From Eledone cirrhosa (lineage: Eukaryota): a stretch of 64,000 nt of DNA. This document shows positions 12,055 to 59,433 of this stretch, in pieces. The translations under genes and the position numbers were made by a program. The notes under the pieces were generated by a model. It was not told the DNA's origin, searched no databases, and worked only from the letters and a program-made list of their open reading frames with translations. The stretch is taken from assembly GCA_964016885.1 (NCBI GenBank), contig OZ024752.1:41106001-41170000 (forward strand). Reading direction: 5' to 3'. Within the stretch, counting starts at the first letter, position 1, and each line of letters starts with the position of its first letter.

Positions 12055-13654
12055 ATTGGCAGAATTGGTAGAGGGTCGGACGCCATGCTTTCCAATTGGC
12101 AGAATTGGTAGAGGGTCGGACGCCATGCTTTCCAATTGGCAGAATTGGTAGAGGGTCGGGCGCCATGCTTTCCAATTGGCAGAATTGGTAGAGGGTCGGA
12201 CGCCATGCTTTCCATTTGACAGAATTGGTAGAGGGTCGGGCGCCATGCTTTCCAATTGGCAGAATTGGTAGAGGGTCGGACGCCATGCATTCCAATTGGC
12301 AGAATTGGTAGAGGGTCGGACGCCATGCTTTCCAATTGACAGAATTGGTAGAGGGTCGGGCGCCATGCTTTCCAATTGACAGAATTGGTAGAGGGTCGGA
12401 CGCCATGCTTTCCAATTGGTAGAATTGGTAGAGGGTCGGACACCATGCTTTCCAATTGGCAGAATTGGTAGAGGGTCAGACACCATGCTTTCCAATTGGC
12501 AGAATTGGTAGAGGGTCAGACACCATGCTTTCCAATTGGCAGAATTGGTAGAGGGTCAGACACCATGCTTTCCAATTGGCAGAATTGGTAGAGGGTCAGA
12601 CACCATGCTTTCCAATTGGCAGAATTGGTAGAGGGTCAGACACCATGCTTTCCAATTGGCAGAATTGGTAGAGGGTCGGACGCCATGCTTTCCAATTGGC
12701 AGAATTGGTAGAGGGTCGGACGCCATGCTTTCCAATTGACAGAATTGGTAGAGGGTCGGACGCCATGCTTTCCAATTGGCAGAATTGGTAGAGGGTCGGA
12801 CGCCATGCTTTCCAATTGGCAGAATTGGTAGAGGGTCGGGCGCCATGCTTTCCAATTGGCAGAATTGGTAGAGGGTCGGACGCCATGCTTTCCATTTGAA
12901 AGAATTGGTAGAGGGTCGGGCGCCATGCTTTCCAATTGGCAGAATTGGTAGAGGGTCGGACGCCATGCTTTCCAATTGGCAGAATTGGTAGAGGGTCGGA
13001 CGCCATGCTTTCCAATTGACAGAATTGGTAGAGGGTCGGGCGCCATGCTTTCCAATTGACAGAATTGGTAGAGGGTCGGACGCCATGCTTTCCAATTGGT
13101 AGAATTGGTAGAGGGTCGGACACCATGCTTTCCAATTGGCAGAATTGGTAGAGGGTCAGACACCATGCTTTCCAATTGGCAGAATTGGTAGAGGGTCAGA
13201 CACCATGCTTTCCAATTGGCAGAATTGGTAGAGGGTCAGACACCATGCTTTCCAATTGGCAGAATTGGTAGAGGGTCAGACACCATGCTTTCCAATTGGC
13301 AGAATTGGTAGAGGGTCAGACACCATGCTTTCCAATTGGCAGAATTGGTAGAGAGTCGGACGCCATGCTTTCCAATTGGCAGAATTGGTAGAGGGTCGGG
13401 CGCCATACTTTCCAATTGGCAGAATTGGTAGAGGGTCGGACGCCATGCTTTCCAATTGGCAGAATTAGTAGAGGGTCGGACACCATGCTTTCCAATTGGC
13501 TGAATTGGTAGAGGGTCGGACGCCATGCTTTCCAATTGCCAGAATTGGTAGAGGGTCGGACGCCATGCTTTCCAATTGGTAGAATTGGTAGAGGGTCGGA
13601 CGCCATGCTTTCCAATTGGCAGAATTGGTAGAGGGTCGGACGCCATGATTTCCA
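12055..13654 (+). repeat. 40-bp tandem array (~40 copies) of a SINE 5' head
   Basis: Unit AATTGGCAGAATTGGTAGAGGGTCGGACGCCATGCTTTCC; runs directly into a SINE body; variant pattern recurs at 680 bp. Confidence 0.95.
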
Positions 13655-16279: not shown

Positions 16280-16283
<4 letters not shown>

Positions 16284-16605
16284 ATCAAAAGATGGTTAAA
16301 AGAGTTCCATGTATTTTATTATGCGCATTTCAAAAACAAATATCATCATGCAATAACATTTGTGTTTTCGTCAGATAAAATAGGGAGACATGATATGAAG
16401 GTTAAAACACACTTGTGAATAGTGCAGTTTTAAATCAACATATATGTTGATTTAAAACTGCACTATTCACAAGTGTGTTTTAACCTTCATATCATGTCTC
16501 CCTATTTTATCTGACGAAAACGCAAATGTTATTGCATAATGATATTTGTTTTTGAAATGCGCATAATAAAATACATGAAACTCTTTTAACCATCTTTTGA
16601 TCTTA
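16280..16605. mobile_element. 326-bp palindrome of a hammerhead-bearing module, with tail to ~16700
   Basis: Centre 16442/16443; about 3 mismatches between arms; HHRs at 16313-16381 (-) and 16504-16572 (+); related copy 46286-46497. Confidence 0.8.
16504..16572 (+). ncRNA. Type-I hammerhead ribozyme-like motif
   Basis: ATTTTAT CTGACGA [CAAATGTTATT gcat AATGATATTTG stem II] GAAA TGCGCA TA ATAAAAT; palindromic stem III ATGCGCAT. Confidence 0.75.
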
Positions 16606-16709
16606 TATATTATTTATACTCCAGTCCTACAAACTGTAGAGTGCTACTTATCCGATATCTGCATTGCTTTATTGTACTACAATAAAACTCACCTCCTACA
16701 TATATATAG

Positions 16710-16784
<75 letters not shown>

Positions 16785-16824
16785 TACAAATATTAATAAA
16801 ATAGATGTTCTTGTGATCAATTAA

Positions 16825-16877
16825 ATTTTATTATACATATTTCAGAGGTACAACAGTACGTCCTCATCAGATAAAAT
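16825..16877 (-). ncRNA. Type-I hammerhead ribozyme-like motif (copy of 4263-4315)
   Basis: Reverse complement matches 4263-4315. Confidence 0.7.
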
Positions 16878-16987
16878 AAAATGATACATGATATACCCTG
16901 AGATGTTAAATGGTTAAGATTTAATCAAGGTAGTAAAACTCATTCTTTGATGTACTCATTAAATCTTGTTTAACTCTTTAATATATA

Positions 16988-40920: not shown

Positions 40921-41066
40921 AATATATATACAAGTTAATATAAATTAATATATTTGATAAACACAAATACCAAATAAACACAAATACCAACATATCCGTA
41001 AAGGACTGCCTGAGTTTTGAACTCATTATTAATAGTATAAATATATATATATATATATACACACAC

Positions 41067-41106
<40 letters not shown>

Positions 41107-41139
41107 ATGTGTGTGTATGTGTATGTATGTATATATATA

Positions 41140-41198
<59 letters not shown>

Positions 41199-42211
41199 TC
41201 AGGTTATCAATAATGTAGTGATAATATATCGTTACGTTAGAGATGAACAGCGTACGTGCAGGTTTGCTCAACGAGTATAAATTATATTCCGGAGAAATGT
41301 AGAAAGGATGAATATAAAATGAAAGTGCTTTTGTTAAAAAAGGAATTTATTAGGTATTGACATATGTTTCTGTAACAGACCGAATACCTATGTATCGCTG
41401 CTTGCGTAATCATATAATGTTAGCAAGTATTCGATAGCAAATGTATAATCAGTTGTCACTTCTTCAGAGATTTTGGATAAACTGGATAAAATCAGAAAAA
41501 TTGAAGTATTTATATTAGTAAAAGAGGAAGGAACAGAGGGGATAGAATATGACAGATGGTAAAATAATTTACTGCTAAACAAGTATATAATGGGTTTTTA
41601 ATGAGAATACCATGAGTAAATCTAAATAAGAATTTTGGGGGTGCCGATTTTAATCTCTACTTGACCAACTGGACAGTGGACAGGGCTGGTCATTTGGTGC
41701 AGTAGTATTAATCATAAAGTGTCAATTGGGGAAGGGGGAGATTTCGATTGCTACTAAATAACATCAATGCTAGTGGTCAGCTGGTATTTGCTCTAGGGAA
41801 TTGAATCAAAAAATCAGAAATCTCATTTTATCTATAGCAGTTTGTATTAAAAGGTAAATAATAGAAGAGTTGATAGAATTAAGACTAATAAAGAATGTTC
41901 ATATCTATTTTGACAATCAAACGGGGATAGAGAAAGGCGTTCAATCCTGGTAGTATTTATAATATGAAAATGTAGATTTTAAGCGATGGTTACAGTATAA
42001 CGATCGCTCTATTCTGTTATTTAATAAAATGTTTTTGGATTTCATAATACAAAATAATTCTACATTACATAATCTACAAAATTCCTGTCCATTGGAATAT
42101 GGGGGGGCAGTCGCTATTATATCCCATTTTAGGTGAAATTGTTGGTTATTTTCACGCAGCTGCCAAGCCTTGTCTGCGAGTGTTGTTACATAACGCTGGT
42201 TTTCATGTTTT

Positions 42212-42482
42212 AAAACATGAAAACCAGCGTTATGTAACAACACTCGCAGACAAGGCTTGGCAGCTGCGTGAAAATAACCAACAATTTCACCTAAAATGGG
42301 ATATAATAGCGACTGCCCCCCCATATTCCAATGGACAGGAATTTTGTAGATTATGTAATGTAGAATTATTTTGTATTATGAAATCCAAAAACATTTTATT
42401 AAATAACAGAATAGAGCGATCGTTATACTGTAACCATCGCTTAAAATCTACATTTTCATATTATAAATACTACCAGGATTGA
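42212..42482 (+). pseudogene. C-terminal part of a GIY-YIG endonuclease of a Penelope-like retroelement (5'-truncated; mirror copy 41941-42211 on minus)
   Basis: KHENQRYVTTLADKAWQL...LKWDII...PYSNGQEFCRLCNVE...LLNNRIE...CNHRLK fits the PLE T.L..W.L..W.I..Y..C.LC..E..LN.R.E..C.H pattern. Confidence 0.7.
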
Positions 42483-42952
42483 ACGCCTTTCTCTATCCCC
42501 GTTTGATTGTCAAAATAGATATGAACATTCTTTATTAGTCTTAATTCTATCAACTCTTCTATTATTTACCTTTTAATACAAACTGCTATAGATAAAATGA
42601 GATTTCTGATTTTTTGATTCAATTCCCTAGAGCAAATACCAGCTGACCACTAGCATTGATGTTATTTAGTAGCAATCGAAATCTCCCCCTTCCCCAATTG
42701 ACACTTTATGATTAATACTACTGCACCAAATGACCAGCCCTGTCCACTGTCCAGTTGGTCAAGTAGAGATTAAAATCGGCACCCCCAAAATTCTTATTTA
42801 GATTTACTCATGGTATTCTCATTAAAAACCCATTATATACTTGTTTAGCAGTAAATTATTTTACCATCTGTCATATTCTATCCCCTCTGTTCCTTCCTCT
42901 TTTACTAATATAAATACTTCAATTTTTCTGATTTTATCCAGTTTATCCAAAA

Positions 42953-43068
42953 TCTCTGAAGAAGTGACAACTGATTATACATTTGCTATCGAATACTTGC
43001 TAACATTATATGATTACGCAAGCAGCGATACATAGGTATTCGGTCTGTTACAGAAACATATGTCAATA
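42953..43068 (+). ncRNA. Hammerhead-like motif with extended stem II (mirror copy 41355-41470 on minus)
   Basis: CTGAAGA (42956) ..GTGACA ACTGA..ATAC / GTAT TCGGT c TGTTAC.. GAAA CATATG TC; stem I is weak. Confidence 0.5.
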
Positions 43069-43118
43069 CCTAATAAATTCCTTTTTTAACAAAAGCACTT
43101 TCATTTTATATTCATCCT

Positions 43119-43181
<63 letters not shown>

Positions 43182-44218
43182 CATGGCTATACCAGTATCA
43201 ATGTGAGGGATTTGTTGTATGATTAAGAGTTCGCTGATGTGTTCAGCAGTGGATTTTAGTCTCATGCCAGCCCTCAAATCATGATAAGGCATTCGACGAG
43301 TTAATTAGGAAACTAGAGAAATTTCACGGGCGAACTACTTGAAGTTTGCCCCTTAGGAATTTCATGAATTAAGTAAGATGGGGGTGGAGTCAAAAGTCAG
43401 ATAAGAGGGAAATGGATGGGGATGGAGGAAGATACAAAGCTTAGTCAAAATATCTGTCATAACGACTCCTATATATTGATTTCTATTGATTTACATTGAT
43501 TCAGGTTTTCTCATCTGGCTCAACTCCAATTATGTTGTGAAGTGCTTATTAAATTATTAAATTCACTTTAGTTATATCACTCATCTTTATTCTATTGACC
43601 TTGACTAAAAGAAGAAGAAAAAAACAAACACAGAAAATCAAGTCGTTCGTCACACCTATGCAGGTTTAGCTGGCCTCCTCCATTGTATATCTCGTTGGAG
43701 GTGTCTTAGGTGATTTAATGATAGGGACTCCAGTATTATCATCTCATTTCTACAGCTGAGTAAACTGGAGCAACGCGAAATAAAGTGTCTTGCTCAAGGA
43801 AACAACACATCGCCAGGTCCGAGAATTGAACTCACAACCTTTCGATTGCAAGCCCAATGCTCTAACGATTAAGCCATGCGCCTGGCGTGTATTTAACTGA
43901 GAAACAGAAATCACACAATACCGTAAAATTGAGAGGTTGTTTAACGTTTGAGCCTCTCTTAGAATCATTAGCTATGCACGTGTTGAGACAGGATTAACTC
44001 TGTGAATTTACATGTGTTGTTGAGCAAGCTCATCTATTCAACTCTGGCTCAGCGATGCTTCCTACAAAGTTAAAAACAACAACAACAAAATAATGGTTTC
44101 TTATACTATAAGCACAAGGCCAACAACAACAAAATAATAATAATTGTTTCTACTTTTGGCACAAGGCCAGCTATTACCCCAGTGCATTGTTTTATATCCC
44201 CCTATCGTCTATAGTATA

Positions 44219-46206: not shown

Positions 46207-46288
<82 letters not shown>

Positions 46289-46392
46289 AGGAGGTGAGTT
46301 TTATTGTAGCACAATAAAGCAATGCAAATGATATGTTGATTTAAAACTTCACTGCTCACAAGTGTTTTTTAAACTTCATATCATGTCTCCCC

Positions 46393-46463
46393 ATTTTATC
46401 TGATGAGAACGCAGATATCATCCCATGATGATATTTGTGTTTTTGAAATGCGCATAATAAAAT
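46393..46463 (+). ncRNA. Type-I hammerhead ribozyme-like motif
   Basis: ATTTTAT CTGATGA [GCAGATATCATC ccat GATGATATTTGT] GAAA TGCGCA TA ATAAAAT; diverged copy of 16504-16572 that keeps the pairing. Confidence 0.75.
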
Positions 46464-46494
46464 ACTTGGAACTCTTTTAACCATCTTTTGATCT

Positions 46495-46546
<52 letters not shown>

Positions 46547-48641: not shown

Positions 48642-48924
48642 TCATCTATATTATATATATATATATATAACAAAGAAAGTGTGGTAAGGAACCAGGTGGA
48701 CCATAACGCACCAGAGTACTCGATACTTAGGGTTGTAGAGTTCAGAACTAGCTGTGGAAACGGCCGGAACTCAGCCGTCGGGGTCCTGACTCTTCTCATA
48801 TATATATATATATATATACACTTATTTATATTATTTATATCTAGTTTATTATTATCACTACTGTTACTACTACTATTAGTATCATTAAGAAATCATTATT
48901 ATTATTATTATTATTATTATTTTA

Positions 48925-56946: not shown

Positions 56947-57591
56947 GTGAGTAAGTTCGACTGGCCGGTCAGCAGAAGAGGACGAATCTATTTCGTTAGC
57001 CATTTCCATTTCAACCTTAACAACAACAGCAACAAAAAAATAAGAAAAAATATATACACAAAAAGGCGAATTAATTCCTTGTCTTGTATATGGCTCTCGC
57101 ACCGATAAAGATACTATCAACCATGGATGTTTAACGAACGAGTTCATACTTACTGCAACAGTGTTTGACACAGTTCTGGAATTTTGGCTCTCTAAAAAAG
57201 AAAATACAAATATATATTAATGATATATTAATAAACATATTATCTTGTATCTGAGCACATACTATATAAAAATATAGAGAACTGTTCAAATAAATCACAA
57301 CAAAATCACCGAAGATTTAAAATATTGAGAAATTATTGAAAAACAGTAATGCATACGGAATACTGATACAATTATGCAACGCTTTTTAATCATCACCATT
57401 TTCTACGGATATTAATGTCCATCTTATTCAGAAGATATCAAACCTTATGACAGAAGCTATATTGATAATGTTAAATGAAAATATACAATTGTAAATAATT
57501 AAGGAACATCTGTTGCTTGTCTTATTAAATTTACGAATTTTTATTCTAAACATCTTTTCAAAACTTTCGTTGTAACACAAAAAATATCAAA

Positions 57592-59433
57592 ATGGCGGCG
57601 GTGTTGCCTCAAATACGTGACAAAATCTTTGAACTGATGGACAAAAGTGGTAACTATATACATGAACCGTCACATCAGCGCCGCTTAGTGCTAATTATTG
57701 TCTGTGTTGCATTATTGCTGGACAACATGCTTTATATGGTCATTGTTCCAATTATACCAAACTATCTTCGAAATACATTTTCTCACGAAGCCATGACAAC
57801 GACGACCCGGGCACCTATTAAATACAATCGCATTTATCGTAATGTAACTGGGGGGCCTACTAACACCACTTCGTGGTATACTGTTGTTGGTGAATCGACA
57901 ACAGCTATACCACCACCTCCCATCGATTATGGCAGTGAAGGGGGAGCGATAGGATTCCTATTTGCTTCTAAGGCCATCCTCCAATTAATGGTTAACCCCT
58001 TTACAGGGGCTTTGATTGACCGAATAGGATACGATATGCCAATGATGATAGGGTTGATTGTGATATTTCTATCAACCGCTGTATTTGCATTTGGAGAAAG
58101 CTATGGCGTACTTTTTATGGCTAGGAGTCTACAGGGTTTGGGTTCGGCTTTTGCCGATACATCAGGTCTGGCTATGATAGCCGATCGATACACAGAAGAA
58201 TCAGAACGTAGTAGAGCTCTTGGAATTGCATTAGCTTTTATATCATTTGGTTGTTTAGTGGCGCCACCCTTCGGTGGTATCCTTTATGAATTCGCTGGAA
58301 AAGTCGTCCCGTTCTTATTTTTAGCAACCATGTCGTTAATCGATGGGTTTCTTTTACTACTTGTAATGAAACCAGTGAGAGTACAGAGGTCTAAAATTCC
58401 AGAGGATCAAAGAGTAAAAGGGACTCCTATTTACAAACTGCTTATGGATCCCTACATTGCCAATTGTGCCGGGGCTTTAGCAATGGCTAATGTTTCCTTG
58501 GCTTTTCTTGAGCCTACCATATCACTCTGGATGAAGGACACGATGGATGCTAGTGAATGGGAAATGGGCTTCATTTGGTTGCCTGCCTTCTTACCGCATA
58601 TAGCTGGAGTCTATCTAACTGTGAAATTCGCTGAAAAACGTCCAAATAAATTATGGGTTCTGGCTGCTGCAGGACTAGCATTAGAAGGGGTCTCTTGTTT
58701 TTTTATCCCCTTTGCAAAAACATTCACTGCTCTAATGTTTCCAATTGCCGGCATTTGTTTCGGTATAGCTTGCGTAGACACGGCACTATTGCCAACTCTC
58801 GGATATCTGGTCGACACTCGACACGTATCCGTTTACGGTAGCGTCTATGCTATTGCTGACATATCTTATTCTTTGGCTTATGCTATTGGACCAATAGTAG
58901 CAGGTGGTATAGTCCATTCAATTGGTTTCTTAGCGCTCAATATTCTAATTTGTATCAGTAATGTCTTGTATGCTCCAGCCCTATTCTATCTAAATAAAGC
59001 TTATGCTTATAAACCGTTTGAGAATGAAGAAATGAAAACTCCAGTTACAGAAGACCGTAGCTTGTATAATGCAAGTGAAACACAGTCCCAGCAAAACTAT
59101 GCTAGTTATGGAGGCGCCAGCGATAAAATAGAAGCTGATCAAAAGCTAAATCTAGATATGGGTAAAAGTACCCAAGCCTGGGACCCACCCCCAGATCATG
59201 GCTATCATAATAATGAAAGTCGCTACAATGCTAATGTTGCCACTGATCAAAGCAATGCAAGAAGTACATATAACACAGGTGGAAGTAATTATACTCAGAA
59301 CACTGGTACTGGGTACAATCAAACCGGAAGTAGTTACAATACAAGCGGAAACCGTTACGGTGGTGGAAATTATAACAATGAGACTAGTAATAGATATGGA
59401 GAGGATAAATATAATCGATGGGAACAACCTTAA
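57592..59433 (+). CDS. SLC18A3: Vesicular acetylcholine transporter (MFS, SLC18 family), intronless, 613 aa
   Basis: [103 protein letters not shown]; luminal NVT/NTT sequons; AAAATGG start context. Confidence 0.97.

Follow-up and report, generated by a model that had tools for sequence, protein, structure and literature searches.

In the interval 41300-43123 of the 64-kb window (the whole stretch of DNA analysed here) the 3' end of a 5'-truncated Penelope-like retrotransposon (PLE), to judge from its sequence almost certainly one of the Hydra clade, stands twice, head to head and without any difference between the copies, in a (TA)n tract (Table 1). The arms were likely written in one fairly recent insertion. 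For the whole route we favour, at roughly even odds (about 0.5), a single event in which each cut strand of the target primed its own reverse transcript. The palindrome offers a clean example of a PLE product that is known and mechanistically unsettled.

Table 1. Features of the palindromic insertion and of related small elements (positions in the window).
Feature	Position	Strand	Basis
Left microsatellite target (TA/CA/TG)n, terminating in (TA)n	41041..41193	.	Sequence
Tail of 108 bp, 3' extension of the left copy alone	41192..41299	-	Arm-mirror extension; tail and arm uninterrupted in one contig of run X1
Left arm, 5'-truncated 3' end of a Hydra-clade PLE	41300..42211	-	Palindrome extension
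Right arm, identical tail-less copy, head-to-head to the left arm	42212..43123	+	Palindrome extension; same terminus, at 41300, followed by (TA)n in six run X2 contigs
Right (TA)n target	43122..43183	.	Sequence
C-terminal endonuclease-domain remnant of 89 codons plus stop (CxxC-E-N-CxH), without RT or GIY-YIG motif	42213..42482	+	phmmer relatives, alignment, pairwise comparison
Mirror copy of the ORF remnant	41941..42210	-	Palindrome symmetry
Hammerhead-like motif: CUGAAGA, extended stem II of 90 nt, GAAA, palindromic stem III, GUC site; stem I of 1 bp	42956..43064	+	Pattern scan, folding
Mirror copy of the hammerhead-like motif	41359..41467	-	Palindrome symmetry
Head-to-head small elements	16283, 4588, 36906, 37092, 37375		Layout comparison
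Inverted arm made of tail only, adjoining a body without tail	46288-46509, 48670-48792		Layout comparison
Single-arm small elements	4474, 8554, 35832		Layout comparison
Six type I hammerhead motifs, stem I of 7-8 bp, 20-38 nt between core boxes	4270, 16511, 16374, 16870, 19015, 46400	+, +, -, -, -, +	Pattern search

Geometry of the palindrome and its flanks

Base-by-base extension outwards from the centre (42211|42212, reading TTTT|AAAA) gave 912 complementary pairs with neither spacer nor mismatch, for which the probability by chance is negligible (about 10^-504); once one mismatch is tolerated the arms reach 915 nt. No other exact arm without spacer in the window exceeds 79 bp, and BLAST found no further copy of the 1020-nt unit formed by the left arm and its tail within these 64 kb. 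The tail is present on the left arm only and its first letters merge into the TA run, while (TA)n adjoins both ends of the palindrome. The preliminary description had proposed this geometry, namely a spacerless palindrome with 912-bp arms, an extra left-hand tail of about 108 bp, flanking (TA)n at either end and about 470 bp of 3' sequence per arm (here the distance from the stop codon to CUGAAGA), and each element of it was recovered. Its reading of the structure as an inverted 5'-truncated copy carrying a tail also stands, given the one-sided tail and the recurrence of both termini in the family. The statement behind it, that PLE insertions often carry such a copy, agrees with Craig 2021 (PMC8557442), which calls inverted 5'-truncated copies with a one-sided tail typical of PLEs.

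Identity of the arms

Read outwards from the centre, each arm holds 89 codons followed by a stop, uninterrupted by internal stop or frameshift. A phmmer search of 1.84 billion representatives returned 977 relatives of this remnant at E<=1e-3; a repetitive protein (P0001) was excluded from the matches as spurious. Residues C45, C48, E51, N64, C73 and H75 are invariant across 19 aligned sequences (the query and 18 chosen matches), and CxxC-E-N-CxH occurs in order in the query and in 137 of the 149 matches examined. The remnant is 40% identical to the C-terminus of the full-length protein P0121, which bears RWR, DKT, YRDD, a CxC linker and YVG. With the sea-cucumber protein P0164 it shares 41% identity over 78 aa (pairwise E 7e-15), and P0164, compared by eye, agrees with Hydra-1_Ajap of the Craig 2021 supplement (PMC8557442). 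A PLE origin, as first proposed, is thus borne out by these relatives and can be narrowed to the Hydra clade. Pfam gave no match for the remnant, and likewise none for eight relatives except one weak match, yet phmmer supplies PLE endonuclease relatives for the ORF. Longer relatives did not appear in a word-index search with the remnant peptide alone, nor any relative among 594 pattern matches of a metagenome scan. A 144-aa "ORF" spanning the centre was discarded as an accident of the mirror, its relatives matching well over the last 89 aa only.

The RT (RWK, DKT), CxCX5C linker and GIY-YIG regions are cut away in the palindrome copy, and their counterparts are found in P0121. The Y[IVL]G pattern of the GIY-YIG motif is absent from the remnant, and tblastn of P0121 against the window matched residues 599-688 only, on the two arms, with no other piece of a PLE ORF. 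Lacking RT and GIY-YIG motif, and with no other ORF piece in the window, this copy is dead and not autonomous. The autonomous PLE of the preliminary description must accordingly be given up, as neither arm has an RT or a catalytic motif, and of its "GIY-YIG C-terminus" the C-terminal part of the endonuclease stands, by the similarity to P0121, whereas the GIY-YIG motif itself and any Pfam match are wanting.

The Hydra clade is defined in Craig 2021 (PMC8557442) by CxxC and CxH around E and N, (TA)n targets and hammerheads, together with an RT bearing RWK and DKT, a CxCX5C linker, a GIY-YIG motif and no CCHH. In line with the C-terminal EN+ elements of that clade described there (Hydra-1_Ajap, Hydra-2_Amil, Hydra-1_Obim), the arms carry CxxC and CxH around E and N and the element is inserted into (TA)n, at the window locus and equally in six contigs of run X2. 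As in that clade, core boxes of hammerhead type lie close to the 3' terminus, stem II is flanked by an additional base on either side, and stem III is palindromic. Whichever step made the arms, assignment of the element to the Hydra clade would almost certainly hold. It represents a separate family, since identity to the relatives among the matches listed is only 30-47%; Hydra-1_Obim was ruled out by eye. The 3' untranslated part, about 750 nt with the tail, differs from the Hydra-clade references too.

The hammerhead-like motif

Near the 3' end of the right arm CUGAAGA begins at 42956 and GAAA at 43053, followed by the palindromic stem III (ACAUAUGU) and by a GUC site at 43064. In an unconstrained fold the 90 nt between the core boxes form one long irregular stem closing beside the core, the MFE and centroid structures being the same. 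Its folding energy is unexceptional (23 of 300 shuffles were as good), while core, a 6-bp stem II and stem III occurred jointly in 0 of 3000 shuffles of the 749-nt UTR. Marks given for PLE hammerheads are an extra base after the first box, a G-C closing pair and a palindromic stem III (PMC4209133), and the motif shows all three. Two features set it apart: stem I, nearly absent in contrast to Hydra-clade hammerheads, has only 1 bp in register, and the core boxes lie 90 nt apart, whereas PMC8557442 uses 7-17 nt in its descriptor and 35-50 nt for its "half cores". A focused Rfam scan gave no hammerhead match for the motif, though Rfam also missed clear small hammerhead modules of the window; the 150 matches listed out of 323 held only below-threshold microRNA-type hairpins. 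The earlier wording, a hammerhead-like motif with a long stem II, therefore remains apt, with core, stem II and stem III present, a stem I of 1 bp and no Rfam match, the last two speaking against function.

Two further details were noted. The stem II insert (42964-43053) looks intron-like, starting with GT and ending in a pyrimidine-rich stretch and CAG, which may be chance. By eye, 43033-43040 could pair with 43065-43072 as an alternative helix. A candidate splice acceptor immediately 5' of the hammerhead was rejected, its G being missing from all X1, X2 and X5 contigs that cover 41482.

Copies of the family in sequencing runs

The left arm and tail (1020 of 1932 bp) were compared with four of 19 listed runs (X1, X2, X5 and X17), which probably derive from other individuals or species. 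Run X2 yielded 818 contigs, of which 271 had an identity of at least 99%, 284 of 95-99%, 201 of 90-95% and 62 of less than 90%; X1 yielded 18 contigs, X5 seven, and the RAD-seq run X17 2986 reads. This is a multi-copy family with close members, the window copy being about 99% identical to X1 and X5 contigs. One X1 contig spans 41192-41519 with 2 differences and 1 gap and, being contiguous through tail and arm, indicates that the tail belongs to the element. In six X2 contigs the arm gives way to (TA)n precisely at 41300, the counterpart of the right-arm terminus, so that both outer end types, tailed and tail-less, recur in the family. Another X2 contig extends 99 letters beyond the centre with no strand switch reported, which suggests that longer family copies exist. 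The central joint at 42211 was found in none of the four runs; contigs cannot cross a perfect palindrome. Both arms carry common alleles unlike the run majority (e.g. at 41381, 41482 and 41934), a sharing that fits copying from a single template, later homogenisation and artefact equally.

On age, the preliminary description spoke of a very recent insertion. The multi-copy family is young, with X1 and X5 contigs about 99% alike, and zero mismatches bound arm divergence at 0.33% at most; the bound is loose and arms can be homogenised, so that the structure is young, not necessarily new.

Read-end pile-ups in X17 were dismissed as element boundaries, five of six among those listed coinciding with AATT sites (41195, 41283, 41344, 41877 and 42059), and an opposite-strand joint in the same run (41282-41471), with 2 starts only, was given no weight. 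Three X2 contigs have a loose end behind 41297, where the element tail is joined to sequence resembling by eye the tail of the 37092 family; these are possibly chimeric or adjacent insertions.

Small elements in the same window

Ten loci of two small families were compared in layout: five are head-to-head with two arms, in two an inverted arm made up of tail alone abuts a body without tail, and three have a single arm, the layout being inverted in seven of the ten. The small hammerhead family comprises 16283-16698, with a one-sided tail, and 46288-46509, where the inverted arm is tail-only and the body starts at the same 5' base. Its element at 16283-16605 repeats the layout of the 41300-43123 structure, of which it is an aged version: a palindrome without spacer whose 160-bp arms contain 3 mismatches. 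The second family, also inserted into (TA)n, has eight loci (4474, 4588, 8554, 35832, 36906, 37092, 37375 and 48670), four of them head-to-head with differing centres and one made of a tail-only arm and a body. Centres vary among otherwise similar copies of the small elements. Rfam did not report the type I hammerhead motifs within 16440-16960.

The proposal that the palindrome ties the small hammerhead modules to an autonomous PLE found no detectable support in sequence: when the large element was aligned with six small modules on both strands, 0 of 12 local alignments exceeded the shuffle maximum. The two are accordingly linked by layout, the one thing common to both, and not by sequence.

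Origin of the arms

In the origin that we favour, the RT-endonuclease of a full-length family member would cut the (TA)n. On the left, the 3'-OH would prime a cDNA that begins at a distal RT start site and contains the tail; on the right, it would prime one that begins at a proximal start site and lacks the tail. Both cDNAs would halt at one and the same base of the endonuclease ORF, the simplest cause being a single broken RNA that served twice as template up to its 5' end, and would be joined head-to-head without spacer; the product would be a dead copy in which mismatches have so far not gathered or else have been corrected. Each arm has its 3' end towards the flank, the orientation expected if both target strands had primed a cDNA, and the contiguity of tail and arm in the X1 contig and the tail-less end recurring at (TA)n in six X2 contigs point the same way. 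Experiments in vitro with an anole PLE showed cleavage and extension on both strands of the target, with reverse transcription starting at two sites that delimit the tail (PMC11167929), in agreement with this scheme, although that element belongs to the Poseidon clade and not to Hydra. The tail-only arms at 46288-46509 and 48670-48792, with no mirror in the other arm, cannot be fold-back copies as they stand; as they fit priming from two strands and not a simple fold-back, we prefer the former. Both cases, however, come from families other than that of the large palindrome, and a deletion in what was once a palindrome could have produced them. It also counts against two independent cDNAs that ends at the same base require a special cause, and that the central junction was seen in none of the four runs, with the qualifications on those runs given above.

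A snap-back origin, in which the 3' end of a single cDNA (tail plus 912 nt) turned back to prime synthesis on the cDNA itself, accounts more simply for the zero spacer. The new strand would have been cleaved, or its synthesis halted, at the tail boundary, and attached to the (TA)n on the right. We hold this alternative less probable than priming from two strands, though not by much. A centre without spacer at an arbitrary point of the ORF, here TTTT|AAAA, then follows naturally. Palindromes at head-to-head PLE junctions were read as self-priming by Arkhipova 2013 (PMC3846280), and Craig 2021 attributes the tail to endonuclease resolution (PMC8557442). Such self-copying nevertheless requires an extra step for the mirror arm to end exactly at the tail-less terminus of the family, and leaves the tail-only arms in 2 of the 10 small-element loci unexplained. 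The palindrome and the small elements of the same window suggest a cheap genome-wide test of twin priming versus snap-back.

Considerably less credible than either is an assembly or library fold-back artefact in which only one arm is real. Zero mismatches in 912 bp, the alleles shared by both arms against the run majority and the missing joint at 42211 in four runs would suit it, as would the rarity of perfect arms of such length in animals, the longest in human being 140 bp (PMC13155455). In a fold-back read, however, tail and left flank would have been duplicated as well; here the mirror ends at a terminus recurring in six X2 contigs, beyond which the sequence resumes in a unique right flank. 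The 16283-16605 palindrome, with its mismatches, indicates that the layout is biological in this genome, and both the recurrent family ends and the inverted layout in seven of ten small-element loci argue against artefact.

Arm correction in quasi-palindromes is well established, and an older inverted insertion could have had its arms made identical later by template switching or gene conversion, in which case their perfection would be uninformative on age. We find this improbable: the several minority alleles on both arms and a hammerhead without a proper stem I would agree with it, but X1 and X5 contigs match the window copy at about 99%, the ORF remnant has neither stop nor frameshift and the neighbouring small palindrome retains its mismatches. 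A non-LTR retrozyme, in which non-coding units with one type I hammerhead apiece follow each other as direct tandem repeats (retrozyme preprint), is excluded, the element being inverted, not tandem, and including coding sequence.

Comparison with known insertions

Head-to-head tailed PLE insertions are already published; what is less usual here is the exact symmetry at such length, the 108-bp tail and the 90-nt stem II. The insertion resembles the inverted pLTR-plus-tail insertions of Penelope and Poseidon in its head-to-head copies, junction palindrome, optional tail at one end and AT-rich target, while the tails described for those are 30-40 bp and the inverted pLTRs about 200 bp, against a tail of 108 bp and arms of 912 bp that reach into the ORF (PMC3846280, PMC11167929). 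Within the Hydra clade, Penelope-13_HM (Repbase) carries a 966-nt inverted copy according to the supplement of PMC8557442, but there the direct copy is longer than the inverted one, whereas both copies of the palindrome are cut at the same base. The repeat landscape gives a cephalopod-like impression. A literature search on Penelope-element palindromes in the presumed host group returned one unrelated paper, which is weak evidence of absence from print.

Long perfect palindromes are unstable (PMC7999016), and a perfect palindrome with 912-bp arms in an animal chromosome would, if the locus is confirmed, be unusual and expected to be fragile.

A more far-reaching joint reading, to which we attach little probability, is that the hammerhead of this Hydra family, with its 90-nt stem II, is a functional variant and that the tail-only arms are the genomic footprint of two-strand priming. 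If the variant did work, its stem II spacing would lie far beyond that of the published PLE hammerhead screen, splicing out of the GT...AG insert would remove stem II and G12 and turn the ribozyme off, and the alternative 8-bp helix could stand in for stem I. The tail-only arms, for their part, would settle how PLEs make head-to-head palindromes, some of them kilobase-long and perfect.

Genomic neighbourhood

About 14 kb downstream of the palindrome, an intronless 627-aa frame (57550-59433, + strand) matches the vesicular acetylcholine transporter (VAChT; E 2.4e-160). The VAChT gene usually sits in the first intron of the ChAT gene, and the palindrome could lie inside the VAChT/ChAT transcription unit. 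Given its position about 14 kb upstream of VAChT, a read-through transcript, if any, would yield a 0.9-kb RNA duplex. Elsewhere in the window, a 40-bp tandem array occupies 12055-13654, with 40 copies and 96% matches.
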